Below, in pieces: positions 9,834 through 63,767 of a stretch of 64,000 nucleotides of DNA. The first letter of the stretch is position 1, and each line of letters starts with the position of its first letter. Below the pieces are notes generated by a model. It did no database searches. It saw only the letters and a program-made list of their open reading frames with translations, and was not told the origin of the DNA. Position numbers and translations under genes: made by a program. Location of the stretch: the sequence record OR995200.1; one strand, 5' to 3'. Source of the stretch: Escherichia phage JY01.

Positions 9834-9846
9834 TCTTTGACGATTT

Positions 9847-9866
9847 AAGGGACCTTCGGGTCCCTT
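9847..9866 (+). terminator. terminator hairpin after gene 23
   Basis: GGGACC-TTCG-GGTCCC followed by a T-rich run. Confidence 0.65.
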
Positions 9867-9881
9867 TAGTTGTTTTTATGG

Positions 9882-9889
9882 TATAAATA
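9882..9889 (+). promoter_or_regulatory. late promoter (TATAAATA) for gene 24
   Basis: exact TATAAATA ~28 bp upstream of the gene 24 ATG, after the gene 23 terminator. Confidence 0.65.
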
Positions 9890-9916
9890 AATCATATAAA
9901 CTGAAAGGAAAGCGCA

Positions 9917-11200: not shown

Positions 11201-11206
11201 AACAAA

Positions 11207-11222
11207 GGGACCTTTCGGTCCC
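11207..11222. terminator. bidirectional terminator between convergent genes 24 and rnlB
   Basis: GGGACC-TTTC-GGTCCC followed by TTTTTATTT. Confidence 0.65.
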
Positions 11223-11229
11223 TTTTTAT

Positions 11230-12234: not shown

Positions 12235-12243
12235 AATTAATCC

Positions 12244-12522
12244 TCAAAATGTAATTTCTAACCAATCACCATCACGCTGATCACTATTGACTTTAAAATT
12301 AAATCCTTCTTTTCTCAGCCAATCACCAATTTCTTCAGTAATCAATTTATCACGAGCAGTACAATAATAACTAAAATATGTTTTACCTTGTTCAGCTGCT
12401 TTATTAGCAAGTTCTGAAAAATCTTTAATAAAACACTCTAGTTTAAACTGTTTACTTTTTAATGCTTTTTCACGTAATTGATTAGCAAAAGATTCATTTT
12501 CATAAAGATCATACTGTTCCAT
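12244..12522 (-). CDS. hypothetical protein (24.2-like)
   Basis: 92-aa ORF between rnlB and hoc, tight spacing. Confidence 0.6.
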   Translation of the reverse strand: MEQYDLYENESFANQLREKALKSKQFKLECFIKDFSELANKAAEQGKTYFSYYCTARDKLITEEIGDWLRKEGFNFKVNSDQRDGDWLEITF

Positions 12523-12724
12523 TTTTCACCTTTTTATTAATGTGTCTTTTTCTATAGACAACTTTTTCTCGAGTCTCAAATTTATTCTTTGCAGTCATAG
12601 CTCGAGCCCATAATACAGCCACTTCTTTCGCCTGTAAGTTTAATTCACGAGCAATTTCAATGAATGACTTTCCAGACTCATGAAGTGTAAACACCACAAC
12701 TTCAGTTCTCATAATCAATCTCAT
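12509..12724 (-). CDS. hypothetical protein (24.3-like)
   Basis: 71-aa ORF overlapping the downstream ORF start. Confidence 0.55.
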   Translation of the reverse strand: MRLIMRTEVVVFTLHESGKSFIEIARELNLQAKEVAVLWARAMTAKNKFETREKVVYRKRHINKKVKNGTV

Positions 12725-12793
12725 GTTATCGAGTTGGTGCCATTATATACATCATTTTCTGATTGTGTTTTGTGTGCTTTCAAAATGAAGAAA

Positions 12794-12807
12794 GGGGCCG
12801 AAGCCCC
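12794..12807 (-). terminator. stem-loop after hoc
   Basis: minus strand GGGGC-TTCG-GCCCC then a U-rich run. Confidence 0.5.
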
Positions 12808-12813
12808 TTTCGA

Positions 12814-14232
12814 TTATGGATAAGTATAGATGATACCAGTTTCTAAAGCAGTTTTATGGATGATGTATCCATTACGTGATTCTTGAACATCAACTTCTGG
12901 ATAATCTTTCATCATCTTCTGAAGCGTATAACGATGCAAGTAGTACTTACTATCTGGATCTTCAGTTTTCCAATCTTTACCTTCTTCAGTCATTTTTTGG
13001 ATTTCATCCATAACCCACCAACCGCACCAGATATAAGCTGAAGTACGATGTGGAAGAGGATGAACATAAGGCAATTCACCTTCTGGTTCCGGAGCAACTT
13101 TATCAGTTACCTGAACTTGACCTGTTGTTTTAACTGTTTTGCTATCATAGTCAGTTGCTGTAACGACAGCAGTAACTTCAATAGTTTGACTTCCAACAGA
13201 TGAGGTATCAACAGTATATACGTTAGTTGACCCTTCTACAGGAGAAGAATCTTTCTTCCATGAATAAGTAATTTGCGCTTCTTCTGGAGCATCAGTGACA
13301 TTAGCAGTAAATGTAGCCGAAGCATCTTGCTGAACGTTAATAGAAGGAGGAGTCAATGTAACCTGTGGATTCATTGTCTTTTTATTAACAGTCAGTGATA
13401 CTTCATTCGAAGTAACTTCCTTTTCATTGTAATTTTCTGCTGTTACTTGGGCTACGCATTTAATTCTTTTTACCCCACTTGTAGTTGGAGTATAGCTAAA
13501 TGTAGAGTTAGTTTCTCCACCAACTTGAGAATCATCTACATACCATTTATATGTAGCAGACGCTCCATCAGGTTGAGAAGCTAAGGTAGCAGTAAATTGA
13601 ACTGGGGTTCCAATTACTCCTGCTGGAGGACTATTAGGAGTTACTGCCAATGTAGTTGTCTGTGTCTTTTTATTAACAGTCAGTGATACTTCATTCGAAG
13701 TAACGGTTTTTTCATCATAATTTGTCGCGGTTACTTGAGCTACACACTTGATTTTTTTAACTCCGCTGGCGGCAGGAGTGTAATTAAATGTAGCAGAAGT
13801 CGCTTCGTCTACAGGAGAATCGTCAACGTACCATTGATACGTAGCAGATGCACCTGATGGCTGCGAAGCTAAGGCAGCAGTAAATTTAACAGCTGTTCCG
13901 ATTACTCCAGCAGCGGGACTATTGGGAGTTACTGCCAATGTAGTTGTCTGAGTTTTGTTTTTTACTGTGATAGTTGTAGTAGCTTCTGCTGTTTCAGCTT
14001 CAGATTCTGGAACTGTATTTGTTGCAACAACTTTAATAGTCTTTTGACCAGCAGGACCTTTTAATACATAATCAAAAGTTGCTTCAGACCCATCTTGTGG
14101 AGCATTATCTACACTCCAAGCATAAGTAATAGTTCCACCTCCAGTTTCACCACTGGGTGCAGCAGTAAACTGCTTGGTTTCATCAATAACCCCTGTCGGT
14201 GTTTTAGGAGTTATATCAACTGTAAAAGCCAT
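12814..14232 (-). CDS. hoc: Hoc, highly immunogenic outer capsid protein with an extra Ig-like domain
   Basis: 472 aa; N- and C-terminal parts match T4 Hoc as I recall it (376 aa); contains two tandem 96-aa Ig-like repeats. Confidence 0.9.
   Translation of the reverse strand: MAFTVDITPKTPTGVIDETKQFTAAPSGETGGGTITYAWSVDNAPQDGSEATFDYVLKGPAGQKTIKVVATNTVPESEAETAEATTTITVKNKTQTTTLAVTPNSPAAGVIGTAVKFTAALASQPSGASATYQWYVDDSPVDEATSATFNYTPAASGVKKIKCVAQVTATNYDEKTVTSNEVSLTVNKKTQTTTLAVTPNSPPAGVIGTPVQFTATLASQPDGASATYKWYVDDSQVGGETNSTFSYTPTTSGVKRIKCVAQVTAENYNEKEVTSNEVSLTVNKKTMNPQVTLTPPSINVQQDASATFTANVTDAPEEAQITYSWKKDSSPVEGSTNVYTVDTSSVGSQTIEVTAVVTATDYDSKTVKTTGQVQVTDKVAPEPEGELPYVHPLPHRTSAYIWCGWWVMDEIQKMTEEGKDWKTEDPDSKYYLHRYTLQKMMKDYPEVDVQESRNGYIIHKTALETGIIYTYP
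13381..13668 (-). repeat. Hoc Ig-like domain repeat unit 2 (residues ~189-284)
   Basis: second copy; shares the string gtctttttattaacagtcagtgatacttcattcgaagtaac with unit 1. Confidence 0.8.
13669..13956 (-). repeat. Hoc Ig-like domain repeat unit 1 (residues ~93-188)
   Basis: 288-bp unit tandemly repeated; protein KTQTTTLAVTPNSPAAGVIGT...SLTVNK. Confidence 0.8.
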
Positions 14233-14241
14233 AAGTTATCC

Positions 14242-14922
14242 TTATTTTAATGTTACGAAAGAAGAATTGCGTGTTTCACGAATTAAAACTGATCCGTCAC
14301 GATTAATGTAATAAATTAAGCTAAACAAAGTTTGGTGTGCTGACGCGTGTTCAAAACTAGTTGGATGAGATTTCCAATCAGGAGTTTCAGCGATCCATTG
14401 ATAAATCCACCAAGGAACCGTACAGAATCCTGGATTTTTCCCCAATAATTGAAGATTCGGGCTAAAGTTTTCCGGAAGAGTAAATACAGACGGCTTTTCA
14501 GATTCAATAATCTCAGCTATAGCTTGTTCAAACTTTTCTTCAACAAAAGGAGTGTCTTCAATCAAAACATCAGTATTTTCAGGAATTTTATCCGTTTCTA
14601 CCACTTCAATTTTAATATCAGATTTAACTGGAGAATCAATCAGAAGTGCTGCTTCTGGATTAACTTCTTCATCGTCATATTTTAATCCCTCTGCAGCATC
14701 AGCAGCATCAATTAAGTCTTTAATAGATAACCCATCAGTCTCTGGCATAGGTTCACTAGCGAGCTTCTGGAGGGCTTCTTCAATATCAGCAACGATATTA
14801 TCAAAAGATTTATTCTTTTTGACCTTTATACCAAACTGTTCAGCATATTCAGCTAATTTAGCTTTAGCTTCTTTATTATCATCAAGAGCCTTCAGCTCTG
14901 CAATATAATCTTTATCTATCAT
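14242..14922 (-). CDS. inh: Inh, inhibitor of prohead protease gp21
   Basis: 226 aa, matches T4 Inh in length and position upstream of hoc. Confidence 0.85.
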   Translation of the reverse strand: MIDKDYIAELKALDDNKEAKAKLAEYAEQFGIKVKKNKSFDNIVADIEEALQKLASEPMPETDGLSIKDLIDAADAAEGLKYDDEEVNPEAALLIDSPVKSDIKIEVVETDKIPENTDVLIEDTPFVEEKFEQAIAEIIESEKPSVFTLPENFSPNLQLLGKNPGFCTVPWWIYQWIAETPDWKSHPTSFEHASAHQTLFSLIYYINRDGSVLIRETRNSSFVTLK

Positions 14923-14935
14923 AATATTTCCTCAG

Positions 14936-14943
14936 TATAAATA
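14936..14943 (+). promoter_or_regulatory. late promoter (TATAAATA) for uvsW
   Basis: exact TATAAATA ~30 bp upstream of the uvsW ATG. Confidence 0.6.
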
Positions 14944-14972
14944 TAGATATATTTATTACATGGTATTTAGAC

Positions 14973-16484
14973 ATGACTGACATTAAAGTACATTTTTATG
15001 ATTTTAGTCACGTGAGAATTGATTGTGAAGAAAGTACATTTCATGAACTCCGTGATTTCTTTAGCTTTGAAGCTGATGGGTATCGTTTTAATCCGAAATA
15101 CAAATATGGCCACTGGGATGGACGAATCCGTCTTTTAGATTATAATCGTCTTCTTCCATTCGGCTTAGTCGGGCAAATTAAAAAGTTCTGTGATAACTTT
15201 GGCTATAAAGCCTGGATTGACCCACAAATTAACGAAAAAGAAGAATTATCAAGAAAAGATTTTGATGAATGGCTTTCTAAATTAGAAATCTATTCAGGAA
15301 ATAAAAGAATTGAACCACACTGGTATCAAAAAGATGCAGTGTTCGAAGGATTAGTTAATCGTCGTAGAATTCTTAATCTTCCAACATCCGCAGGTAAATC
15401 TTTAATTCAAGCTTTGCTTGCACGTTATTATTTGGAAAATTATGAAGGTAAAATTCTTATCATTGTTCCAACAACTGCTCTAACAACTCAGATGGCTGAT
15501 GACTTCGTTGACTATCGTTTATTCAGTCATGCAATGATAAAGAAAATTGGTGGCGGAGCATCAAAAGATGATAAATATAAAAATGATGCACCAGTCATTG
15601 TTGGTACATGGCAAACTGTAGTAAAACAGCCAAAAGAATGGTTCTCACAGTTTGGAATGATGATGAATGATGAATGCCATCTTGCTACAGGAAAAAGTAT
15701 TTCATCTATCATATCAGGTTTAAATAACTGCATGTTCAAATTTGGTCTATCTGGTTCATTACGTGATGGCAAAGCCAATATCATGCAGTATGTTGGAATG
15801 TTCGGTGAAATATTTAAGCCAGTAACGACTTCTAAGTTAATGGAAGATGGACAAGTAACTGAGCTAAAAATTAATAGTATTTTTCTTCGCTATCCCGATG
15901 AGTTCACTACTAAATTAAAGGGAAAAACTTATCAAGAAGAAATAAAAATTATTACGGGGCTTAGTAAAAGAAATAAATGGATCGCTAAATTAGCTATTAA
16001 GCTTGCGCAAAAAGATGAAAACGCTTTTGTCATGTTTAAACATGTATCGCATGGTAAAGCTATTTTCGATTTAATTAAAAATGAATACGATAAAGTTTAT
16101 TACGTATCAGGGGAAGTTGATACCGAAACCCGCAATATAATGAAAACCTTAGCTGAAAATGGTAAAGGAATAATTATAGTAGCTAGTTATGGTGTATTTT
16201 CTACTGGTATTTCAGTTAAAAATCTGCATCACGTTGTTTTAGCGCACGGTGTTAAATCAAAAATCATTGTATTACAAACAATCGGTCGTGTATTACGTAA
16301 GCATGGTTCTAAGACAATAGCAACAGTCTGGGACCTCATAGATGATTGTGGTGTTAAGCCAAAATCTGCTAATACGAAAAAGAAATATGTTCATTTGAAC
16401 TATCTTTTAAAACACGGCATTGATCGTATTCAGCGCTACGCAGATGAAAAATTTAATTACGTAATGAAAACAGTTAATTTATAA
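14973..16484 (+). CDS. uvsW: UvsW DNA/RNA helicase (SF2)
   Basis: 503 aa; Walker A TSAGKS, DECH box (MMNDECH); T4 UvsW length; late promoter upstream. Confidence 0.93.
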   Translation: MTDIKVHFYDFSHVRIDCEESTFHELRDFFSFEADGYRFNPKYKYGHWDGRIRLLDYNRLLPFGLVGQIKKFCDNFGYKAWIDPQINEKEELSRKDFDEWLSKLEIYSGNKRIEPHWYQKDAVFEGLVNRRRILNLPTSAGKSLIQALLARYYLENYEGKILIIVPTTALTTQMADDFVDYRLFSHAMIKKIGGGASKDDKYKNDAPVIVGTWQTVVKQPKEWFSQFGMMMNDECHLATGKSISSIISGLNNCMFKFGLSGSLRDGKANIMQYVGMFGEIFKPVTTSKLMEDGQVTELKINSIFLRYPDEFTTKLKGKTYQEEIKIITGLSKRNKWIAKLAIKLAQKDENAFVMFKHVSHGKAIFDLIKNEYDKVYYVSGEVDTETRNIMKTLAENGKGIIIVASYGVFSTGISVKNLHHVVLAHGVKSKIIVLQTIGRVLRKHGSKTIATVWDLIDDCGVKPKSANTKKKYVHLNYLLKHGIDRIQRYADEKFNYVMKTVNL

Positions 16485-16496
16485 GGGCTTCGGCCC
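16485..16496 (+). terminator. small stem-loop at the uvsW stop
   Basis: GGGC-TTCG-GCCC overlapping the uvsW.1 SD; possible RNA stability or coupling element. Confidence 0.4.
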
Positions 16497-16509
16497 TTTG
16501 GAGAAAAAG

Positions 16510-16740
16510 ATGTTACTAGAATTTAAACAATTTCTTTATGAAGCTTCTATTGATGAATTTATGGGTAAAATTGCCTCTTGCCAAACATTAGAAGGTTTAG
16601 AAGAACTTGAAGCTTATTATAAGAAAAGAGTTAAAGAAACTGAATTAAAAGATACTGATGACATCTCAGTCAGAGATGCTTTGGCAGGAAAAAGAGCTGA
16701 ATTAGAAGATTCAGACGATGAAGTAGAAGAAAGCTTTTAA
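16510..16740 (+). CDS. uvsW.1: UvsW.1 small acidic protein
   Basis: 76 aa from the ATG at 16510 (ORF-track start 16498 is a TTG inside a hairpin). Confidence 0.75.
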   Translation: MLLEFKQFLYEASIDEFMGKIASCQTLEGLEELEAYYKKRVKETELKDTDDISVRDALAGKRAELEDSDDEVEESF

Positions 16741-16796
16741 ATTAAAAAAGGCCCAACCAAAAAAGGAAGGGCCAAAACTATAGACTAAAGGTCACA

Positions 16797-16964
16797 CTAT
16801 AGCAAAAGTTGTGTTTCATTTAATTGTTCTTCCGAACTTTCTGAAACTGGTAGTTCTTTAATGTAATTATAGCAAGGCCCAGGATGTACAGGACCTTTGT
16901 CTGTTTCAACAACCAATGCAGAATCGATTGGAGTTTTACAGACAACACAAATCTTATCTGACAT
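16797..16964 (-). CDS. small Cys-containing protein (uvsY.-2-like), 55 aa
   Basis: ORF below the track cutoff, translated by hand: MSDKICVVCKTPIDSALVVETDKGPVHPGPCYNYIKELPVSESSEEQLNETQLLL; GGAG SD upstream. Confidence 0.55.
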   Translation of the reverse strand: MSDKICVVCKTPIDSALVVETDKGPVHPGPCYNYIKELPVSESSEEQLNETQLLL

Positions 16965-17087
16965 GATTGTCTCCTCTGAATTATATATCTATTTATAACC
17001 CCATCTTAAAGCGCATTTCTTGTACACGCTTTAAACATGCTTCCATTTCTGCTAAAAGTCTAAATACTTCTTTATAATTTGTCATAT

Positions 17088-17315
17088 TTACCCCATATCT
17101 CTCATATGCATATCAATGCCCATATCTTTAGAATAAAAATATTCATCAAGATATCCGGCAAATTTTCCTTTAATATAAAGGACATCTTCACCACACGGGT
17201 GGTCGGCCAGGATACGAATATCCTGACGCTTAAGATTATGCTTTTTCATTAAGAATTGAATCTCAGTTTCAAATTCTTCTTCATAATTAAAAGCATCATC
17301 AATGTTATATCTCAT
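17088..17315 (-). CDS. hypothetical protein (uvsY.-1-like)
   Basis: 75-aa ORF immediately downstream of uvsY, overlapping junction. Confidence 0.65.
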   Translation of the reverse strand: MRYNIDDAFNYEEEFETEIQFLMKKHNLKRQDIRILADHPCGEDVLYIKGKFAGYLDEYFYSKDMGIDMHMRDMG

Positions 17316-17728
17316 TATTTTCCAGCCTCAAATGCCCGCATGTCTTGAATATGCTTAATAGCAAATCCTCGTGATTTGATAGCATCAAGAGCTCCGCTAC
17401 AGAAATCTAATAAAATTCCCCAATATTGTAATGAAGTATCAACCTTTAAAACATCCTTATCAGCTGATAGAACTGTTTTCATTTCTGATTTCTCGTAACG
17501 ATCCATACTAAATTCATCACCATCTCCTCGTCCCGAGTAGTAGTCTAATTTAGCTTTAAGAGCAACTTTTTTCTGTGCATCAATTCTAAGCATTTCCTTT
17601 TTAATACTTGAATGCTTATTAAGCCATTTACTATATAACATCACATTATTAGCTGCTTCATACTGTAATTTAGTCGAATCTATAAACACATCTTTCTTCA
17701 ATTCTTCTTGAAGATCTTCTAATCTCAT
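17315..17728 (-). CDS. uvsY: UvsY recombination mediator protein
   Basis: 137 aa, matches T4 UvsY; MotA-box middle promoter upstream. Confidence 0.93.
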   Translation of the reverse strand: MRLEDLQEELKKDVFIDSTKLQYEAANNVMLYSKWLNKHSSIKKEMLRIDAQKKVALKAKLDYYSGRGDGDEFSMDRYEKSEMKTVLSADKDVLKVDTSLQYWGILLDFCSGALDAIKSRGFAIKHIQDMRAFEAGK

Positions 17729-17768
17729 ATTGTTCTCTATTCAATTGTTATTGGATGGACTTAGATTC

Positions 17769-17794
17769 ATTATACCACGTTTATACGTGAAGCA
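17769..17794 (-). promoter_or_regulatory. middle promoter for uvsY (MotA box + -10)
   Basis: minus strand: ATGCTTCA (MotA box) - 13 nt - TATAAT, ~40 bp upstream of the uvsY ATG. Confidence 0.6.
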
Positions 17795-18193
17795 TTATAC
17801 TCTATTACTGGAAGCCAGTTGTAGTTTTATCTGCTCAATATCATCAGGGTTATCGATGACTGAAAAGCGTATTTCTACTATCAAAGTATAATCATCATAA
17901 ACCGGTATTACATTAACTGCTAATTTATCAATACGTGGCTCATAGTTTCTTACTGCGCTTTCGATATTACGCTCAACCGTGTCAGCAGTAAGAGGAGTCA
18001 TATTCTCAAAAAGTTGGTCAGATAAATCGCATCCAAATTCAGGGTCAAACGGTCTTGAACCTTTTCTTGTTGTAATAATTCCTAAAAGACTATTTTTAAT
18101 TGACCTTAATCCAAGTGATCTTGAAACGTCTTTGTTCCAATCCATTTTCATCTCTGGGTCAATATCAGAATAAAGCTTATTAATATTTGCCAT
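17795..18193 (-). CDS. 25: baseplate wedge protein gp25
   Basis: 132 aa, T4 gp25 length and sequence. Confidence 0.92.
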   Translation of the reverse strand: MANINKLYSDIDPEMKMDWNKDVSRSLGLRSIKNSLLGIITTRKGSRPFDPEFGCDLSDQLFENMTPLTADTVERNIESAVRNYEPRIDKLAVNVIPVYDDYTLIVEIRFSVIDNPDDIEQIKLQLASSNRV

Positions 18194-25486: not shown

Positions 25487-25489
25487 AAC
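25460..25489 (-). promoter_or_regulatory. early (sigma70-type) promoter for the alt.-3-like ORF
   Basis: minus strand: GTTTAC - 18 nt - TATAGT; part of the 54-bp repeat. Confidence 0.55.
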
Positions 25490-27546
25490 TACATTTTGAA
25501 CTTTTTAGACATTCCGTTGATGTTAACCAAAGAAGCTAAGATTTGAGAAACTTCGTTTTCCTCTTCTTTTGATTCTTCTACAAGGAATTGATTAAATCCA
25601 GCCATTGGACGAACTTCACCAGTTTCCATTAGATGGTCGCCATCATATACTGATTCTTCTAATTGTTCAGAAGGAGGAACGATTGTACCTTCGATTAGAT
25701 ACTTGTTATAAGCAGTTTCTTTCATAAAGTAAGTACTTACTTTATTAATCTTCAGTAAAATTCCACGTGGTAGAATAACTTCAGCTTCTGATGGAAATCC
25801 TGACAAATGACCTGGAACGATAACTTTAACTCGTTCAGCTCCTTTAATTACCATACCCACGCTAGTTTCAGCATCTTCATTAGCATATGTAGAATGACTA
25901 CCCATATGCATCAAATCTTCTGCATCAACGGAACCTTCTCCTTCACCAGAAAATACTGCTCCGGAATTATCTAAGGCCATATAATTTTTACCATACTCAC
26001 CAAAGATATTTGGTTTAAGTGATGTCGATACGAAGTTCTTGAAATAGAACATTTTATTTTCAATGTTATGACGCAAAGTTTTAAAAGTAACTTCTTGTCC
26101 ACGGTAAAGTGTAGTTCCTGGAGGAAGAACTGAACCTTTAGCAAACGCAGAATCTAACGTCTCAATATGTTTAATAGCTCGTTCCATATATTCTTCACGG
26201 GTAGAATCTGGTTTACCTAAAAGGAATGAGTTCATTTCAACATATGAATCTGCACAATAATCTTCAATTACATCAGATTCAGCCTGAGTCAATCCTTTTG
26301 GAGTTACTTCAGTGCTTGCATATTCATACGCCTGAGCAGCGGATTCATCAATTAATTTATAAATGCCATTCATGACAAATTGAATAATAGCTGTCTTTTC
26401 ATCTGGCGTAGCTTTAGAACCTTTAACTAAATCATTGACAATTTTCTTAATAACATCAAAGCTATTAGAAATATTAATGTCAGCAAGATCGCTTAAAATT
26501 TTATCAGTTTTATAATCAAAAAATTCTTTATTCTTTAAATATTCTTGAGAACTTTGATATGTTATATCGCTCTGCAACTTGATAGATGGATCACGTAAAC
26601 GTGCATGGGCTAATGCAATATGATTTCGGAAGCTTTCTAGTTCATAATCACTAGATTTAAAACGAGAAGCACTCCTCATACCACCGATAGCTCCTTTGCT
26701 GAAGTTTGAACCAACCTGAATAACGCCAGAGTTCATTGGTCCTTCTGCTTTATATACCGGAACTTTAGATTCAAACTCTTGATATTTCTTAGCAGCAAAG
26801 CTATCACCCTGAAGTGAAGCATCAACAGTAGAATATTGAGCTTGTGCTGCTAATCGACGACTAATTTTAGTTTTCTGAATAACAGCTTGATCCGTACGCT
26901 TATCATTTTCTAAAGCAATAGAAGCAGCAACTGCGACAGCTTTAGGAACAGCATTACCTGTTTTAACGTCTACATAAACATCACCAACCTTTGATTCAAC
27001 TTTTGTGAATAACTCAGTTGAAATAGGAGGTACACCTGGAATGTCTTCTAAATTGGCATTTTTACGGTAAACCATAATATATGCATATTTCTTATCATAG
27101 TCCCAGATTTCCTTTAAAAGAACATATCGACCTGCTCCTTTAGTACGTACTAAACGGTCAGCAATAACTTGCATTTGACGAGCAGCGCCGTTTGTTTTAC
27201 TTTTTAGTACGCGGAATAGGCATGCATCAATTTTATACTGTTTCATTGTTTGAAGAGCAGTATCAAAAACCGCATTAATGACGCCAATTGGATTTCCACC
27301 CAAGTTTTTAAGCTTAACTAACGATAATTTCTCGTTGACGCCTATCATTACGATATGCATCATTTTGTCGCCTGGCTTAACGTTTTTATTCGTATCACCG
27401 CCAGAGGTGTATGTACAAAATCTAAATCCAGGAAGCACGCTTTCTTCACCGGCTTGAATAGCAAAAATTTGTGGTATTTTATGCTTAGGATTTAAGTTAA
27501 CAACCGGCGCCGAAGCGCCGTCAAATAATTCTGTAATAAGTTCCAT
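25489..27546 (-). CDS. Alt-family ADP-ribosyltransferase paralogue (685 aa)
   Basis: N-terminal MELITELFD targeting sequence; C-terminal R / STS / E-x-E triad (YRGQ, FVSTSL, EAEVILPRG); paralogue of the adjacent gene. Confidence 0.8.
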   Translation of the reverse strand: MELITELFDGASAPVVNLNPKHKIPQIFAIQAGEESVLPGFRFCTYTSGGDTNKNVKPGDKMMHIVMIGVNEKLSLVKLKNLGGNPIGVINAVFDTALQTMKQYKIDACLFRVLKSKTNGAARQMQVIADRLVRTKGAGRYVLLKEIWDYDKKYAYIMVYRKNANLEDIPGVPPISTELFTKVESKVGDVYVDVKTGNAVPKAVAVAASIALENDKRTDQAVIQKTKISRRLAAQAQYSTVDASLQGDSFAAKKYQEFESKVPVYKAEGPMNSGVIQVGSNFSKGAIGGMRSASRFKSSDYELESFRNHIALAHARLRDPSIKLQSDITYQSSQEYLKNKEFFDYKTDKILSDLADINISNSFDVIKKIVNDLVKGSKATPDEKTAIIQFVMNGIYKLIDESAAQAYEYASTEVTPKGLTQAESDVIEDYCADSYVEMNSFLLGKPDSTREEYMERAIKHIETLDSAFAKGSVLPPGTTLYRGQEVTFKTLRHNIENKMFYFKNFVSTSLKPNIFGEYGKNYMALDNSGAVFSGEGEGSVDAEDLMHMGSHSTYANEDAETSVGMVIKGAERVKVIVPGHLSGFPSEAEVILPRGILLKINKVSTYFMKETAYNKYLIEGTIVPPSEQLEESVYDGDHLMETGEVRPMAGFNQFLVEESKEEENEVSQILASLVNINGMSKKFKM

Positions 27547-27549
27547 GAT

Positions 27550-29643
27550 TTATCCTTGAACGAACTTGTAAGGCATGTTTGTAATATCTATGCAAGACGC
27601 AATAATTCCAAGAGATGATTCTACTTTCTGTTTAACGTTTGATGAAACAAATGATGCAAAGTCAACTCTGTCTTCTATTTCAATATCACCTGTCATTGCA
27701 ACTACTTCACCGGTTTCCATTAAATGGTCTCCGTCATAGATTACCGATTCGGTGAGCTCTTCCGTGGTCATAACTTCAGCTTGAATGAGTTTTGTATTAT
27801 TAAATGTTGTTCCGTCATTATTAGAAGCATCAGTTATTTTATTAACTTTGACCATCAATCCACGCGGTAGAATAACTTCAGCTTCTGTTGCTATTCCGAG
27901 ACTTCCTGGATATACAACATTAACTTTATGAGCTCCATCAATTGCCCATCCTATTTGAACTTTAACGTATTCAGGATTTTCTTTATACGCTCTTATTTCG
28001 TTTGGATTAATAGTTATTCCTTCTTCATTTTTATCAACTGTTAATTCATTGCGAGCTTCTGGTTCTAAAAGACCAATACCAGCATGTGTGATTCCAAAAC
28101 GTCCAAAAATGATAGGAGTTAAAGAAGTAGATACAAAATTTCTGAAATAGAACACTTTATTTTTAACTAACGCTTCATATATAGGAGCAGTCATACTTTG
28201 AGCACGATAAACTGTAATGCCTTCTGGTATACGGTCACCATTTTCAAAAGCTGAATCTAAGTTATTTATAGCAGATTCAATTTCTTTTTCACTCATTACA
28301 TCATATCGTTCTGGATTGTAACGACCTAAAAGAAGATTATTGATGTCAGTATATCCTGAACCGCAATATTCTCTAATGCCACGCTTTTGTGATGGAGTAT
28401 ATTTAGAACCATCGCGGGCAATAGTAATATCAATCATTGGACCAGCACCAATTCCAGAAAAACTGTAAATCATTCGTTTGAGGAATTTAGTTTTTGCTGC
28501 GTTCCAGGAATTTTTAGTTATTTCTTCCCAGACTTCATCTGGTTGTCCTTTACGATTTTTATTATGATTAGCAAGCCATTTATCTTTATAATCTTCAAAG
28601 AATTGATTTACAGCTGCTGCGTATTTCTCTAAACATTTTATTGAAGTAGTTGGTTCATTTTTAATTGCATTAAAAATTACTTCTTTAATTTTTTCTGAAA
28701 CTTCACCGACTTGACTCATTGGAAAGAATTTATAATCATAGTGAAGTTCATCTGCCGTTCCTTCAGCAATAATTTTTGCTGCCTTTGTTTTAGAAGCTAA
28801 TGAATTAATTCCAATTTTCATTTCTTCTGCTTCGGGAATTAAAGGTGCAGTAGCTGGTTTATTAAAATTAGCTGCTGTAGATTCATACTTCTGGAATAAT
28901 TCACTTTCAAATCTAGAAGATTCCAATGACTGACTTTGTGCAATTGCTCTACGGGAAATTTTAACTTTAACGATTACGGCTTGGTCAGAACGTTTATCAT
29001 TTTCTTGTGCAATAGATGCAGCAATTGCCTCATTTTTGGTTACTTGAGCTCCAGTATCTTTATTGATATAAACATCACCGACCTTCGATTCAACTTTAGT
29101 AAAGAGTTCAGTGCTAATTTCTGGAACTCCTGGAATGTCTTCTAATGATACATTTTTGCGATGTATAAGAATATATGCATACTTTTTATCGTAATCCCAG
29201 AGTTCCTTAAGAAGGACGTATCTGCCACCTGAACGACTGCGGATGAGTCTATCAGCAATAAGTTGAATTTGTCGAGCTTGACCGGCGGTTTTAGACTTAA
29301 GAATACGAAGCATGCAGGCATCAATTTTATATTGACGCATTGTTTGCATTGCAACAGTAAAAACTGAATTGATATAATTAATCGGGCTTGGACCAAGACC
29401 TTTTAATTTAGCAATTGAACCTTTAGCAGTTAATGTAAAAGGAACAATGTGCATCATTTTATCGCCCATCTTTAAATCACGATTAGTATCACCTTCAGAT
29501 GTATAGGTACATAAACGAAAGCCTGGTTGTTCAATTGCATCATCAACATGAACTGAAAAAATTTGTGGTATTTTCTTCTTTGGATTTAAGTTTGTAATCG
29601 GAAGAGTAGTATCTTCGTCAAATAATTCTGTAATAAGTTCCAT
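27550..29643 (-). CDS. alt: Alt ADP-ribosyltransferase (capsid-packaged, injected)
   Basis: 697 aa; MELITELFD N-terminus; YRAQ, FVSTSL, EAEVILPRG motifs; late promoter TATAAATA (minus) upstream; adjacent to DNA ligase as in T4. Confidence 0.85.
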   Translation of the reverse strand: MELITELFDEDTTLPITNLNPKKKIPQIFSVHVDDAIEQPGFRLCTYTSEGDTNRDLKMGDKMMHIVPFTLTAKGSIAKLKGLGPSPINYINSVFTVAMQTMRQYKIDACMLRILKSKTAGQARQIQLIADRLIRSRSGGRYVLLKELWDYDKKYAYILIHRKNVSLEDIPGVPEISTELFTKVESKVGDVYINKDTGAQVTKNEAIAASIAQENDKRSDQAVIVKVKISRRAIAQSQSLESSRFESELFQKYESTAANFNKPATAPLIPEAEEMKIGINSLASKTKAAKIIAEGTADELHYDYKFFPMSQVGEVSEKIKEVIFNAIKNEPTTSIKCLEKYAAAVNQFFEDYKDKWLANHNKNRKGQPDEVWEEITKNSWNAAKTKFLKRMIYSFSGIGAGPMIDITIARDGSKYTPSQKRGIREYCGSGYTDINNLLLGRYNPERYDVMSEKEIESAINNLDSAFENGDRIPEGITVYRAQSMTAPIYEALVKNKVFYFRNFVSTSLTPIIFGRFGITHAGIGLLEPEARNELTVDKNEEGITINPNEIRAYKENPEYVKVQIGWAIDGAHKVNVVYPGSLGIATEAEVILPRGLMVKVNKITDASNNDGTTFNNTKLIQAEVMTTEELTESVIYDGDHLMETGEVVAMTGDIEIEDRVDFASFVSSNVKQKVESSLGIIASCIDITNMPYKFVQG

Positions 29644-37171: not shown

Positions 37172-37404
37172 AGTACGCCATACACCCTTTGTGCTTCAAC
37201 TAATCCATCAAAATCCAATTTGAGATGTGTTATTTGGTCACCATCACCTGGATTCACAATTACTAATACCGAACGAGGAGTTTCGGTAATAACACGAACC
37301 GACGTTTCAGGAAATCGTTCAGAAACCTTATTTACCAATTCTTGAGCAAATAGTTTAACTTTTTCTTGGAATTCTTTAACAGTAATTGGTTTTTCGCTTA
37401 GCAT
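37168..37404 (-). CDS. hypothetical protein (cd.2-like)
   Basis: 78-aa ORF. Confidence 0.55.
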   Translation of the reverse strand: MLSEKPITVKEFQEKVKLFAQELVNKVSERFPETSVRVITETPRSVLVIVNPGDGDQITHLKLDFDGLVEAQRVYGVL

Positions 37405-37925
37405 GTTGATCCTAGCTCCTTACTTTCAACATTTTTAACTAATTTGACAGAAACTAATTCAGCATCTTGGGTAATCATTACCGGACCTTCTTCATGCTCT
37501 TCAAGATATTCTAGAGCTTTCTTTTTAGCTTCTTCCTTCGTATCAGTTTGAGCATAGATATAGAACATACAACCAGTAATACCTACTACTTTCCACTTAA
37601 TTTCTTTACCAGTTTTAATTTCAAATTTACTTACAGAATCATCTTTTTGAACTTCTTCGAAAAAAGAATATTCTAACATATAAGCAATTGAAAATAACGG
37701 GCTAACTTTATAGGATTCACCCATTACATCAACAGCTTTATACCAACAATCATCAATTTCACGTTTAATGCTAATAACATTTTTCGCAGGATCTATTTTT
37801 ACTTTAAATGAATTTTCCCCAATAAACTGGGCAATTCGTTTATTAGCCCCGCAAGTTTCATTAAAAATATCTTTATATCCAGCTTTAAAGCGATAAACCT
37901 TATCTTCTTCAAACCATTCGCTCAT
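37398..37925 (-). CDS. hypothetical protein (cd.3-like)
   Basis: 175-aa ORF; early promoter upstream. Confidence 0.6.
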   Translation of the reverse strand: MSEWFEEDKVYRFKAGYKDIFNETCGANKRIAQFIGENSFKVKIDPAKNVISIKREIDDCWYKAVDVMGESYKVSPLFSIAYMLEYSFFEEVQKDDSVSKFEIKTGKEIKWKVVGITGCMFYIYAQTDTKEEAKKKALEYLEEHEEGPVMITQDAELVSVKLVKNVESKELGSTC

Positions 37926-38466: not shown

Positions 38467-39874
<1,408 letters not shown>

Positions 39875-39878
<4 letters not shown>

Positions 39879-42924: not shown

Positions 42925-44103
42925 TTAAAAGTATTTTTTAAAACTCATCATAACTTTATCATCAACATCATTATCAATCTGTGCAACAAGATAAGATGAC
43001 AGTTCTACTTCTTGTGGCGCGGATTGAACATTATCAGAATTAAGGTATTCACGAATCCAAGGATATGGATGTTTAACCGGAGCATCGGTAATTGGGCATG
43101 GAAGACCACACTGTTTCATACGAGATACAGTTAAATAATCAATAAAGCTCCACATGCTATTTGTATTTAATCCAGGAACATCGCCATCTTTAAATAAATG
43201 AACTGCCCAATCTTTTTCTTGGCGGTTAACTTCCATGAAAATATCAACTGCTTCTTGTTCACACTCTTGAGCAATTTTAACCCATTCATCACCATCAGTG
43301 CCAAGTTGGAGCTGACGAATAATATACTGGGTGCCTTTAAGGTGGAGTTGTTCGTCTCGAGCAATGAATTTCATAATCTTCGCATTACCTTCCATGATTT
43401 CCATATTTTTATGGAAGTTGAAAGTACATGCAAAGGATACATAAAAACGAATAGCTTCCAGGGCATTGATAACATGAAGGCAGAGATAAAGCGACTTCAT
43501 CAATGCATATTTACATTCTTCCACATGCATAAGACTATTTGAATATGCATCTAAATCATATTCATTTTCGGAAAAACATTTAAAAATTTCTTTTGCATTT
43601 TCCCATTCGCGCGTCTTAACCAGAACATCATCATAATAATGACCAATAGATTCAGCACGTTTCATGATAGCTTTATCTAATACAATCTCATCAAATACCT
43701 TTGACGGATCAGTATAAAGATTTCGCATAATATGAGTGTATGAACGACTGTGAATAGTTTCACTAAAAGTCCATGTAGCAACCCATGTATCAAGACTTGG
43801 GTCTGAAATTAACGACATAAGTACAGCAGACGGTGCACGACCCTGAATGCTATCTAGAAGTGATTGATACTTCAGGTTATTAGTAAAAATATCTTGCTGA
43901 TATTGAGGAAGCTTGTTAAATTGCGCAGCATCCATCATTAAGTTTACTTCTTCAGGACGCCAGAAAAATGATAATTGCTTTTCGGTTAAATCTTCAAAAA
44001 CTTTATGGCGTTGAATATCATAACGCGCAATACCAAGACCTGAACCAAAAAACATAGGTTCTTTTAAAACATCAACTGGATTTGTATTAAAAACTGTGCT
44101 CAT
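42925..44103 (-). CDS. nrdB: ribonucleotide reductase small subunit NrdB
   Basis: 392-aa uninterrupted ORF; di-iron/tyrosyl-radical family; no intron. Confidence 0.93.
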   Translation of the reverse strand: MSTVFNTNPVDVLKEPMFFGSGLGIARYDIQRHKVFEDLTEKQLSFFWRPEEVNLMMDAAQFNKLPQYQQDIFTNNLKYQSLLDSIQGRAPSAVLMSLISDPSLDTWVATWTFSETIHSRSYTHIMRNLYTDPSKVFDEIVLDKAIMKRAESIGHYYDDVLVKTREWENAKEIFKCFSENEYDLDAYSNSLMHVEECKYALMKSLYLCLHVINALEAIRFYVSFACTFNFHKNMEIMEGNAKIMKFIARDEQLHLKGTQYIIRQLQLGTDGDEWVKIAQECEQEAVDIFMEVNRQEKDWAVHLFKDGDVPGLNTNSMWSFIDYLTVSRMKQCGLPCPITDAPVKHPYPWIREYLNSDNVQSAPQEVELSSYLVAQIDNDVDDKVMMSFKKYF

Positions 44104-44154
44104 AAATTTTCCACTTAGTTAATAGACAGTGACTCGTCCATGAGTCAAATTATA

Positions 44155-46419
44155 TCATAATTTACAGGATGAACAATCTTCAGCTTTTGGAGTTTCTATT
44201 TCATAATCATCAGTACCAGAACCATCACGGGTATTATGATAATAGAAATTTTTTCCGCCAAAATACCAAAAATACAAAAGGTCATCAATCATTATTGACA
44301 TTGGAACCTTTCCTTTTGGAAAAATCTGTGGGTCATAGTATGTATTCGCCGAAGCTGATTGACAAACCCATTTCAGCATAATAGCTACCTGCGTGAGATA
44401 AGGTTTATTACCTTTCTTAGCTAATTTCCATGTATAATCATAGAGGTCTATGTTATGCTCAATATTGGGCACGACTTGATTAAAGGAGCCCTCTTTTGAT
44501 TCTTTAACAGAGACTGGTCCACGTGGAGGCTCGATACCGTTTGTACTGTTAGAAACTTGGGAAGATGACTCACATGGCATAAGTGCTGATAATGTGCTAT
44601 TACGGATGCCAAAGAGCTTAAGGTCTTCCCGCAGCGACGACCAGTCACAAACGTATTTTGGAGCTGCGATTTGGTCAATCTTTTTATTGTACCAGTCGAT
44701 AGGTAATTCGCCTCGAGACCAACGAGTGTCTGAATAATATTCGCAAGGTCCTTTTTCTTTGGCGAGCTTAATGGATGCTTTAATGAGTCCATACTGTAAT
44801 CTCTCAAATAGTTCATGTGTTAAATCGTTAGCATCTTCATAAGAAGCAAAGTTACTTGCCAGCCAAGCTGCATAGTTGGTAACACCTACACCGAGGTTAC
44901 GACGCTTTTTAGCTTTTTCTGCTTCAGGAACTGGATATCCTTGGTAATCCAAAAGATTATCAAGAGCACGAACTTGGACTTCTGCCAATTCATTAATTTT
45001 ATCTTGGTCTTGCCAGTCAAAATTATCCAGTACGAATGCAGAGAGAGTACACAATCCAATTTCAGCATCGGGGCTATTCACATCATTTGTTGGAATAGCA
45101 ATTTCACAGCACAAGTTACTCTGACGAATAGGTGCTTTTTCACGAATAAACGGAGTATAGTTATTCGTATTATCAATGAACTGTACATAAATCCTTGCTG
45201 TTCCTGAACGTTCAGTCATGAGCAATTCAAATAGTTCACGGGCTTTAATACGTTTTTTACGAATATTAGGGTCTTTTTCTGCTGCTTCGTATAATTCACG
45301 GAAACGGTCTTGGTCTTTAAAATAAGAATAATAAAGCTCGCCACCCATTTCATGCGGACTGAACAAAGTAATGTAATCGTTCTTTCCGAATCGTTCCATC
45401 ATCAAATCATTCAGCTGAACACCATAATCCATATGACGAATACGGTTTTCTTCAACACCTTTGTTATTTTTTAGAACGAGAAGATTTTCAACTTCCAAAT
45501 GCCAAATAGGATAATAAGCAGTAGCAGCGCCGCCACGAATTCCACCCTGTGAGCATGATTTAACAGCAGTCTGAAAATGTTTCCAAAAAGGAATAACACC
45601 AGTATGGCGGACTTCACCCATGCCAATCTTAGAACCTTCGGCACGAATCATACCAACGTTAATACCAATTCCAGCGCGTTTAGAGATATATTCAACAATT
45701 GAAGCTGAAGCCTTATTAATAGACTTCAGCGAATCACCTGCCTCAATAACAACACATGAACTAAACTGTCGAGTCGGAGTACGACAACCAGCCATAATAG
45801 GAGTTGGTAATGAAATCTGTCGAGTAGATACTGCTTCATAAAAACGAATAACATGTTTTAATCTATCAACAGGTTCATCTTGATGCAGTGCCATTCCAAT
45901 AGTCATAAATGCAAACTGCGGAGTTTCATAAATTTGACCAGTGGTTTTATCTTTAACTAGATATTTTTCTTTTAATTGCATCGCACCGGAATAAGTAAAT
46001 TCCATATCCCGCTCGTGCTTAATTTTTGATTCTAAAAATGTAATTTCTTCTGCTGAATATTTTGACAATAATTCAGGGTCATATTTACCTTCATTTACAC
46101 AGTAAGAAATATGGTCAATAAATGAACGTGGTTCATACTGCCCATAAACATGCTTACGAAGAGCAAACATTAAACAGCGTGCAGCTACATATTGATAATC
46201 AGGTTCTTCAACCGAAATAGAATTCGCAGCGGCCTTAATGACAATAGTCTGAATATCATCAGTTGTCATTCCATCACGGAGATAAGATTTAATATTTTCA
46301 TATAATTCATAAGGATCTACTGATGTTCCTTCAGCTGCCCAAGATAAAACTTTAATAATTTTTTGTGGGTCAAAGCTCTGAGAAACACCACTACTTTTGA
46401 TAACATTAATTAATTGCAT
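44155..46419 (-). CDS. nrdA: ribonucleotide reductase large subunit NrdA
   Basis: 754 aa; class Ia RNR; T4 NrdA length. Confidence 0.95.
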   Translation of the reverse strand: MQLINVIKSSGVSQSFDPQKIIKVLSWAAEGTSVDPYELYENIKSYLRDGMTTDDIQTIVIKAAANSISVEEPDYQYVAARCLMFALRKHVYGQYEPRSFIDHISYCVNEGKYDPELLSKYSAEEITFLESKIKHERDMEFTYSGAMQLKEKYLVKDKTTGQIYETPQFAFMTIGMALHQDEPVDRLKHVIRFYEAVSTRQISLPTPIMAGCRTPTRQFSSCVVIEAGDSLKSINKASASIVEYISKRAGIGINVGMIRAEGSKIGMGEVRHTGVIPFWKHFQTAVKSCSQGGIRGGAATAYYPIWHLEVENLLVLKNNKGVEENRIRHMDYGVQLNDLMMERFGKNDYITLFSPHEMGGELYYSYFKDQDRFRELYEAAEKDPNIRKKRIKARELFELLMTERSGTARIYVQFIDNTNNYTPFIREKAPIRQSNLCCEIAIPTNDVNSPDAEIGLCTLSAFVLDNFDWQDQDKINELAEVQVRALDNLLDYQGYPVPEAEKAKKRRNLGVGVTNYAAWLASNFASYEDANDLTHELFERLQYGLIKASIKLAKEKGPCEYYSDTRWSRGELPIDWYNKKIDQIAAPKYVCDWSSLREDLKLFGIRNSTLSALMPCESSSQVSNSTNGIEPPRGPVSVKESKEGSFNQVVPNIEHNIDLYDYTWKLAKKGNKPYLTQVAIMLKWVCQSASANTYYDPQIFPKGKVPMSIMIDDLLYFWYFGGKNFYYHNTRDGSGTDDYEIETPKAEDCSSCKL

Positions 46420-46736
46420 AAGTCCTCAACTTGAAAATCGTCTTTAAACAATCGGTTAACTATATGAGCTATTATATCACCATGACACGGCTTTGGTTTA
46501 CATGTGCATCCTAGCCTCATTCCACGTAAAGGCTCTAAATGTGCTTTAGTTATTTCTCCGGATTTAATTCGACGTATAAAATCTTTTTTGAATAATTCAA
46601 TGGCAGCCTCCCGGCTGCCAGCATCTTTACCGACGTAATTTCCCCAAAATGTACCACGGTGAATATTAACATCAAAGTCGGATTTATATTTATTCACTAC
46701 TCGGCATATACGGCCTGCGCGGTTGTAAGTGTTCAT
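46410..46736 (-). CDS. hypothetical protein (nrdA.1-like; Cys/His motif [11 protein letters not shown])
   Basis: 108-aa ORF overlapping the nrdA start. Confidence 0.55.
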
Positions 46737-46965
46737 ATTGTTCTTCCGTTAAAACAGTAATATCGTAGTAACAGTCAGAAGAAGTTTTAACTGTAGAAAT
46801 TTTATTATCAAAATACTCACGAGTCATTTTATGAGTATAATATTTTTTGCCATAAATGATAATAGGCTGATTTGGTCCTGGAACTTCTAACTCGCTTGGA
46901 TTAGGAAGTGTAAAAAGAACTACACCAGAAGTATCTTTAAATCGTAAAATCATATATCCTCGCAA
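46690..46965 (-). CDS. hypothetical protein (nrdA.2-like)
   Basis: 91-aa ORF; 47-nt overlap with the downstream ORF. Confidence 0.5.
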
Positions 46966-46973
46966 TAATAAAA

Positions 46974-47834
46974 TTACACCGCCATCTTTCCTTTAATAGG
47001 AGGATGTGATTCATAGTTGTTAAGAACAAAATTATGAGGCTTTGCAAATTGACTCAACCAAAATACCTGCGATTCTGTGTCCCATTCATCAAATTCATCT
47101 GGAAATTTTAATTGTAATTCGCATAAATCCATAGGTTCACGACATAAAATTTCTTTACATTGTTCTACGTGATTCATATAGATATGAGTATTACCACCAG
47201 AAAATATCAAATCTCCCGGAATAAGATTACACATCTTAGCTACAATATGAACTAACGTAGCATATGATGCAATATTAAATGGAAGACCGAGGAAAACATC
47301 TACCGAACGTTGATACCATTGAAGGTCAAGGTATCCATTACGCACATTAAACTGATAGAACATATGACAAGGCGGTAATGCCATATATTTAAGTTCAGCT
47401 GGATTCCACGCAGAAACAATTTGACGCCTATCATTTGGCAGTTTTTTAATACGATCAATAACTTCTATAATTTGATCTACACCGCCAAAATCACGCCACT
47501 GTTTTCCATAAATTGGACCAAGTTCACCGCTATGGTATCCTAAATCTTTTGCTTGATTTTCGTAATTTTCATCCCAGACTGTTTTGCCTTGAATTAATGA
47601 ATCATGTTGAATTAATCGCAAATCATTGACATTTGTGCTTCCTGATAAAAACCATATTAGCTCAGCAATGCATGCATTCCAGGCGAGCTTTTTAGTTGTT
47701 ACTGCAGGAAAACCTTTGGTTAAATCCCAACGCAATTTAGTACCGAACAAAGCAATTGTTCCTGTGCCCGTTCGGTCATCGGTTTCATAGCCATTTTCAA
47801 AAATGTCTTTAATTAAATCTTGGTATTGTTTCAT
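46974..47834 (-). CDS. td: thymidylate synthase
   Basis: 286-aa uninterrupted ORF; active-site region PPCH; no intron. Confidence 0.95.
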
Positions 47835-47879
47835 TTAGTACCTTATATAAATTATAATACATTTTATGAAGCTAAATAA

Positions 47880-48239
47880 TCAATACGGTTTAGCATCAAA
47901 TTTTCTCTCAATTTCAGGCGTGAAATATAATTCTTTACCGCGTTTGGAAAAGCGACCAATAATATGATAATTATTCTCATCAAACGTGATATTACCAATA
48001 TCCATAGCTTTCAACCAAATATCGATATTTCTATCCAGCTTTATGTCAAAATTCCAATACGGAGAACTATTACCGAAAATACTACAAGCGGATTCAGTGA
48101 AACAACTGCTATAAATCTTGTCTTTAGGAACTACTAATTGATAAACACCTTTAATAAACTGAGGACCTTGCCATTTTGGCTGTTTCGCGTCTTCTTCTAA
48201 TAGAATAGGGTAATAATTAAAATTCATATTTTCCGCCAC
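47880..48239 (-). CDS. hypothetical protein, 119 aa, between frd and td
   Basis: ORF fills a ~0.4 kb gap where, from memory, T4 frd and td overlap directly. Confidence 0.55.
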   Translation of the reverse strand: MAENMNFNYYPILLEEDAKQPKWQGPQFIKGVYQLVVPKDKIYSSCFTESACSIFGNSSPYWNFDIKLDRNIDIWLKAMDIGNITFDENNYHIIGRFSKRGKELYFTPEIERKFDAKPY

Positions 48240-48247
48240 GCGTTATT

Positions 48248-49070
<823 letters not shown>

Positions 49071-49086
<16 letters not shown>

Positions 49087-49430
49087 TGAAAGGGGCCAGA
49101 AGCAAATCCGCTATCTTTAATCATTTTAACTAAAGTTACCATTCCTCTGTTAACTGCTTGCGAGATTTCATCAAAAACTTCATCACTATCACCATAAAGA
49201 TCGCTAAAAAGTTCTAACACGTTCTTCTGAACTTTTAATTTACAGCCAACAAATTCGCCTACAGTAAATTCGTTTCCGCCAACTCCAGCGTAAAACGTAA
49301 TTACACCAGTTAATGGTCTTTCACTAGAACATAGGTCGTGTGATAAATTAATATAAGCCGTCCCGGGTGCAGTTTTAAGTTGGCAACGAATACTTACTCG
49401 AGCAATTCCAGCTACACGAATGTCAGACAT
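49071..49430 (-). CDS. hypothetical protein (frd.2-like)
   Basis: 119-aa ORF. Confidence 0.55.
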
Positions 49431-51528: not shown

Positions 51529-51600
51529 TTTTATTTCCTTTTTAATTTAATTAACAGTTGGTGCTATGACGATGTATGACCTCATAGCTGGTCAGTGAGA
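51529..51600 (-). promoter_or_regulatory. gene 32 translational operator (autoregulatory A/U-rich leader with upstream pseudoknot)
   Basis: minus strand reads ...GCTATGAGGTCATACATCGTCATAGCACC...TTAATTAAATTAAAAAGGAAATAAAAATG, matching the T4 gene 32 leader as I recall it. Confidence 0.65.
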
Positions 51601-51611
51601 TAATTATAATC

Positions 51612-51619
51612 TATTTATA
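51612..51619 (-). promoter_or_regulatory. late promoter (TATAAATA on minus) for gene 32
   Basis: plus-strand TATTTATA in the 59-32 intergenic region. Confidence 0.6.
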
Positions 51620-51627
51620 ATAAGCAA

Positions 51628-59614: not shown

Positions 59615-63737
<4,123 letters not shown>

Positions 63738-63767
63738 TTTGAATAAATATCCTTAAAAGGAGGGTCT

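Follow-up and report, generated by a model that had tools for sequence, protein, structure and literature searches.

Genes and Empty Intron Sites of the nrdB-td Locus

In Escherichia phage JY01 (OR995200.1), the interval 42925-47834 of a 64,000-nt stretch (hereafter the window; all absences reported below hold for these 64 kb only) carries the gene for thymidylate synthase, td, and that for the ribonucleotide reductase (RNR) small subunit, nrdB. With their neighbors these genes form the order td - nrdA.2 - nrdA.1 - nrdA - nrdB - denA, which is the Tequatrovirus nucleotide-metabolism cluster and is 95-98% identical to many Tequatrovirus records. In the window, td (46974..47834, minus strand, 286 amino acids [aa]) and nrdB (42925..44103, minus strand, 392 aa) are uninterrupted open reading frames (ORFs), whereas both are annotated as two-piece joins in phage T4 (NC_000866), td with I-TevI inside and nrdB holding the defective I-TevIII.

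The td product gives an end-to-end match to Thymidylat_synt (PF00303, 1-266/266, E 3.9e-94). The empty td intron site lies at 47285..47286 (minus strand; coding strand ...CTCGGT/CTTCCA...), where the blastn alignment joins T4 positions 143546 and 144564 and the 1017-bp td intron with I-TevI is missing; the reading frame continues across the junction (...TTCCTCGGT then CTTCCATTT...). An uninterrupted junction of this type occurs in 137 phage records, while records that match its exon-2 half only do so, among the matches listed, at 100% identity and starting exactly at the insertion site. Differences from T4 are concentrated at that site, with 15 in nt 480-570 vs. approximately 1-2 per 30 nt elsewhere in exon 1. 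Seven of the differences between the T4 exon and the window lie in the -22..+18 stretch of the I-TevI target, and every one of them is synonymous. The published I-TevI cleavage motif (PMC5009752), here CAACG, is kept at -27..-23 from the insertion site (47308..47312, minus strand). Near the 3′ end, a sharply bounded patch of about 28 aa (td aa 241-268, ~47031-47114) is unrelated to that of T4, with roughly 75% of nucleotides differing.

The nrdB product matches Ribonuc_red_sm (PF00268, 9-271/281, E 9.3e-36), the class Ia RNR beta domain, and aligns with the T4 exons. Its empty intron site is at 43427..43428 (minus strand; coding strand ...TTTGCAT/GTACT..., read through in frame), joining T4 positions 138457 and 139056 in the blastn alignment; the 598-bp intron with the defective I-TevIII is missing. 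The published target region of the homing endonuclease MobE (43948..43980, minus strand; PMC2790892) comprises codon 42, AAG (43978-43980), and the FFWRPEE block (43948-43968), and codons 42-52 read AAG CAA TTA TCA TTT TTC TGG CGT CCT GAA GAA. NrdB is 392 aa long, vs. 388 aa in T4, because of a non-homologous 30-aa replacement patch at aa 171-200 (~43504-43593; about 75% of nucleotides differ from T4) and not because of any mobile element. In progeny of T4 x T2, a recombination point has been reported at nt 505-515 (PMC2790892), which is where this patch starts. Outside the replacement patches, the td and nrdB proteins are 95-100% identical to those of T4. An element remnant was considered as the reason why nrdB exon 1 is only 82.7% identical to T4 and was rejected, because the 30-aa patch and the mobE-associated polymorphic region together account for the low value.

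Between nrdA and nrdB, T4 has mobE and nrdB.1. Neither is in the window, where the ORF list and the T4 alignment leave a gap of 51 bp (44104..44154), the same length as in RB51, with a weak 6-bp hairpin (44130-44147) as its only content. Next to it, nrdA (44155..46419, minus strand, 754 aa) has the T4 length and contains no intein and no inserted endonuclease gene. It is followed by nrdA.1 (DUF4326) and nrdA.2 (DUF5496), small conserved ORFs that are also present in T4 (46410..46965, minus strand).

Intergenic Sites of segD, segE, and segG

Six mobile elements are annotated in the corresponding interval of T4: the td intron with I-TevI, the nrdB intron with I-TevIII, mobE (with nrdB.1), segD, segE, and segG. 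Alignment to T4 places the last three in gaps of the window that have the same lengths in RB51, namely the gene 23/24 gap for segD (9834..9916, 83 bp), the inh-uvsW gap for segE (14923..14972, 50 bp), and the gene 32/59 gap for segG (51529..51627, 99 bp). None of these gaps, nor that between nrdA and nrdB, contains an ORF. The T4 late-promoter consensus, TATAAATA, occurs once in each of the three seg gaps (at 9882-9889, at 14936-14943, and, on the minus strand, at 51612-51619), and in the 23/24 gap it accompanies a GC-rich hairpin followed by a T-run. The four intergenic sites are compact regulatory junctions composed of hairpin, late-promoter consensus, and ribosome-binding region.

Search for Homing Endonucleases and Introns Across the Window

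The window is collinear with T4 96,672-160,453, an interval that begins with gene 17 and ends with gene t, and the aligned blocks are 90-97% identical by blastn. Outside the breakpoints given here, the block lengths of the two phages agree within 33 bp, and new genes are therefore possible only in segments without T4 alignment. These are a segment with a second alt paralog, full-length (685 aa) and found in RB51 too (25509-28836); a 175-aa ORF (37398-37925, minus strand); a 106-aa ORF (39558-39878); the region between td and frd (47838-48242) with a 119-aa ORF (47880-48239, minus strand); a segment (48829-49430) with ORFs of 85 aa (48829-49086) and 119 aa (49071-49430); and the gp37 C-terminus with a T6-like gp38 (59782-63742). 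When the ORFs of these segments were scanned against Pfam, PHROG, and NCBIfam, no nuclease family, whether GIY-YIG, HNH, or other, was matched. The non-T4 ORFs matched unknown-function families only (phrog_1928, 3183, 3566/DUF7247, 3710, and 2364).

Two further searches covered the whole window. The T4 proteins SegD, SegE, SegG, MobE, I-TevI, I-TevIII, and NrdB.1 gave nothing but noise in tblastn (best E 0.3). Hidden Markov models (HMMs) of T4 homing endonucleases, based on seven GIY-YIG and three HNH proteins, were run against all 870 six-frame segments of the window, with T4 as a positive control. The best GIY-YIG score in the window was E 0.049, at the gene 68 orthologue, and T4's orthologue scored equally; the best for HNH was E 0.88. 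On the T4 elements the same HMMs reached 1e-54 to 1e-73. Leave-out HMMs recovered SegD, SegE, and MobE and missed I-TevI and SegG, which indicates partial sensitivity to divergent members. The sole GIY-YIG-like protein of the window is denA (EndoII, a T4 orthologue), with a weak match to TIGR01453 (E 2e-4), and it is not a homing gene.

For introns, T4 intron DNA had no blastn match in the window, and the Rfam family Intron_gpI had none either, at the gathering threshold or at E<=1, in a scan that was also weak on its T4 control. In that control (positions 9000-18000 of the T4 piece used) nothing reached the gathering threshold; at E<=1 the nrdB intron was the only hit, with 35.7 bits vs. a gathering cutoff of 50, and the td intron was never detected. 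Rfam was accordingly rejected as a decisive intron detector and base-level collinearity with T4 was used instead. Since the T4 introns themselves are missed, the absence of introns is deduced from collinearity with T4 and from the unbroken reading frames. A standard Rfam scan can overlook phage group I introns that contain an ORF, and a null result at the gathering threshold of Rfam cannot alone declare a phage intron-free.

A preliminary description of this DNA had pointed to uninterrupted td and nrdB genes where T4 has group I introns, and to short, ORF-free gaps at the T4 sites of segD, segE, and segG. The ORF list, the full-length Pfam matches, and the exact exon-exon junctions bear out the former, and T4 annotation confirms both introns. 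The seg positions that it gave are those of the T4 annotation and of Table 1 in PMC2988022, and the gaps are as short as was claimed. The description had also taken the window to be free of selfish nucleases; this held in the family scans of non-T4 ORFs, in tblastn, and in the six-frame HMM searches, and no intron or endonuclease sequence appeared in the T4 alignment. It overlooked mobE, the sixth T4 element.

Relationship to T4, RB51, and Other Tequatroviruses

The interval 42925-47834 matches more than 500 Tequatrovirus records at >=90% identity in a megablast search of the phage collection, the top match being vB-Eco-KMB42 (98.0%), followed by the wV7, RB51, and NBEco003 types. A 25-kb query from the window has its top matches, at 96-97%, in Sf23, REP2, and CAM-21, and neither query matched any record of the collection identically. 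From gene 23 to gene 59, RB51 (NC_012635) shares with the window the gene order, the intron-free td and nrdB (392 aa), the absence of segD, segE, mobE, and segG, and gaps of identical length at all four sites. Its td matches that of the window at 860 of 861 nt, and it likewise has the td-frd ORF cassette, two alt paralogs, and a T6-like gp37 of 1103 aa. It is nevertheless not the same phage, as overall identity is approximately 96-97%; RB51 also lacks the window's 175-aa ORF between cd.2 and cd.3, has a Hoc of 376 aa vs. 472 aa in the window, and carries other small ORFs between frd and frd.1. T4 shares the collinear backbone, but differs in having the six mobile elements where the window has none, in its own patches at td aa 241-268 and nrdB aa 171-200, in its T4-type gp38, and in lacking the td-frd cassette and the second full-length alt.

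The window is thus best read as an ordinary member of Tequatrovirus, an RB51/wV7/Sf23-like mosaic with unoccupied alleles at all six T4 mobile-element positions in the interval (probability roughly 0.9). The finding is one of presence or absence, to which a chance test is inapplicable. In practical terms, one can confidently annotate the window as an RB51-like Tequatrovirus backbone without these elements.

The frequency of the elements among relatives shows how common this state is. The td-nrdB region reaches >=80% query coverage in 565 records of the phage collection, 516 of these at >=90% identity. The td intron was found in 197 records, the nrdB intron in 118, segD in 53, segE in 159, segG in 142, and the mobE region in 143 when any match was counted (20 with nrdB.1). 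Each T4 element is therefore a minority trait, at approximately 10-35% of roughly 520-565 comparable records. The element-free state is the default condition of T4's relatives, and T4 is the exception. This is already known: variable td and nrdB introns and seg and mob genes have been described among T-even phages since the late 1980s, and the importance of one more instance extends little beyond annotation. The distribution of introns among T-even-like phages was reportedly also treated by Sandegren and Sjoberg in 2004 (J Biol Chem). The inconsistent distribution of the td and nrdB introns goes back to papers of 1987-1989 cited in a published review (PMC2988022), in which T4, with its 15 homing endonucleases, is called "an oddity."

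Most of the genus shares the element-free state, which therefore does not set the phage apart. The suggestion in the preliminary description that this state helps to place the phage outside T4 proper is right in its outcome, given the 90-97% block identity and the RB51/wV7/Sf23-like indels, with the caveat that the absence of T4 elements is a weak taxonomic marker. It is a poor marker because the elements are sporadic among close relatives, as seen in the td intron of vB_Eco_F25 and in the endonuclease gene inside nrdA of REP2. In REP2 (OQ174501, 1831-4999), which has a window-like backbone, an inserted homing endonuclease gene splits nrdA into two ORFs, a case of genes-in-pieces.

Empty Sites as Homing Recipients

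None of the six sites holds anything active, and td and nrdB are plain continuous genes; in the homing framework, the empty sites would represent recipient (homing-site) alleles. At td, the uninterrupted site is preceded 23-27 nt upstream by 5′-CNNNG-3′, the motif in which C1 and G5 are critical for I-TevI, an enzyme that is otherwise sequence-tolerant (PMC5009752). At nrdB, an AAG at codon 42 precedes the conserved FFWRPEE block, as in mobE-less phages, and this allele type has been published as MobE-sensitive (PMC2790892). During co-infection with an element-bearing phage, I-TevI would be predicted to cut 23-25 nt upstream of the td insertion site, and MobE to cut or nick near nrdB codon 42 (nt 122-126, window 43978-43982). 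Donor-templated repair would then convert the empty sites together with flanking exon sequence. To judge from these sequence features, and from natural relatives in which the td intron adjoins window-type exon sequence, the sites are probably cleavable and the window alleles appear to be ordinary homing recipients. If the phage were crossed with T4, its regions around td, nrdB, uvsW, and gene 32 should behave as recipients.

Two phages offer points of comparison. T2 is a cleaved recipient for T4 endonucleases in the classical T4 x T2 homing and marker-exclusion crosses, is without mobE and the nrdB intron, and has AAG at codon 42 (PMC2790892, PMC2988022). The AAG codon and the FFWRPEE block are common to T2 and the window; in T2H the td junction is uninterrupted as well, but in this comparison, which concerns the junction only, it is 92.6% identical to that of the window over 68 nt. 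vB_Eco_F25 (OP870144) resembles the window in its backbone, the td-frd ORF, and the window-type td 3′ patch, and differs within td, where it has an intron of 1016 bp that contains an endonuclease ORF and, at nt 504-546, a tract of the T4 type. Its informative td sites are T4-type from the cleavage site up to the insertion site (nt 504-546) and window-type at nt 552-567 and in the 3′ patch. An upstream T4-type tract is what co-conversion from a cut at -23/-25 predicts, and the clustered td differences between T4 and the window are therefore better explained as donor flanks in T4.

Several points count against regarding the window as an element-free, ordinary recipient. The td target differs from the T4 exon at the seven synonymous positions within -22..+18, and cleavage of this variant is only predicted. 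GIY-YIG leave-out recovery was two of four T4 elements, which leaves room for a nuclease of very divergent sequence among the five ORFs of unknown function. The Rfam scan is no valid negative test. Nine other T4 element sites, namely those of segA, segB, segC, segF, mobA-D, and the nrdD intron with I-TevII, lie outside the window, as would any non-T4 sites elsewhere in the genome. Finally, the frequency counts are inflated by duplicate RefSeq and GenBank records and by laboratory T4 derivatives.

Alternative Explanations for the Empty Sites

The sites could have become empty secondarily, through the precise loss of some introns or endonuclease genes that an ancestor had, for instance when it recombined with relatives free of them. 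The accepted view of such elements is that they pass through cycles of gain, degeneration, and loss (PMC2988022). Degenerate elements are known, such as the defective I-TevIII of T4 and the partial td and nrdB introns of some phages (32-52% coverage), and T4-like genomes are highly mosaic. However, blastn, tblastn, and HMM searches found no remnant of any element in the window, and the gap lengths equal those of RB51. In addition, the flanks are of the mobE-minus rather than the donor type, with AAG at nrdB codon 42 and td flanks unlike the T4 type; this counts against secondary loss, because co-converted flanks would often persist after recombinational loss. A history of lost elements seems unlikely. 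An artefact of assembly, in which reads of variants with and without introns were merged into the shorter path, is barely credible: we found no point in its favor, no element is present at any of six independent sites, the window has the same junctions and gap lengths as the independently sequenced RB51, wV7, and KMB42, and the window-type td junction recurs uninterrupted in the 137 records mentioned above.

A different kind of explanation would make the td and nrdB alleles resistant to homing, with synonymous changes in the target selected to block invasion and the sites empty for that reason. The clustering of the T4 differences around the td insertion site and the uniformly synonymous changes in the I-TevI target are what such selection might leave. 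Against it, the critical CAACG is intact at the correct distance, I-TevI tolerates sequence variation (PMC5009752), in natural phages the intron is found immediately next to exon-2 sequence of the window type, and the nrdB of the window is the allele published as MobE-sensitive (PMC2790892). The F25 tract, moreover, fits co-conversion, and the clustered differences are better read as donor flanks in T4. We consider resistance at these two genes highly improbable. It is just as improbable that the RB51-type td allele, whose synonymous changes cluster across the spacer and binding region of I-TevI, perhaps along with window-type flanks at other sites, is a naturally selected homing-resistant form and not a naive recipient; if true, homing resistance would help explain why most Tequatroviruses stay element-free despite very efficient laboratory homing.

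Other Features of the Window

Between td and frd, a 417-bp cassette (47838-48242) sits exactly where the frd stop codon and the td start codon overlap in T4. Its 119-aa ORF belongs to phrog_1928 and has no Pfam match, and a sigma-70-like promoter match lies in the cassette just upstream of td. The cassette is flanked by a 9-bp direct repeat, TAAATGAAA, and the RB51 annotation already reads 'flanked by 9 bp repeat.' The cassette occurs in 362 phage records, and T4, without it, represents the minority state.

At the alt locus, two full-length Alt-like ADP-ribosyltransferase paralogs lie in tandem on the minus strand (25489-27546, 685 aa, and 27550-29643, 697 aa). T4 has one alt there and the remnant ORFs alt.-1 and alt.-2, while RB51 is arranged as the window is. 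The 175-aa ORF at 37398-37925 (minus strand), between cd.2 and cd.3, belongs to phrog_3710 and to no Pfam family, and there is no ORF at that position in T4 or RB51.

The hoc gene (12814-14232, minus strand) encodes 472 aa, vs. 376 aa in both T4 and RB51. The extra length is due to a 288-bp tandem duplication (13375-13950; two copies, 79% matching) whose roughly 96 additional aa may amount to one more Ig-like domain in this capsid decoration protein. At 59615-63737 (plus strand), the C-terminal part of gp37 and gp38 (269 aa) have no T4 alignment. The gp37 of the window is as long as that of RB51 (1103 aa), which is annotated in the RB51 record as similar to T6, and this suggests that the receptor-recognition module differs from that of T4.

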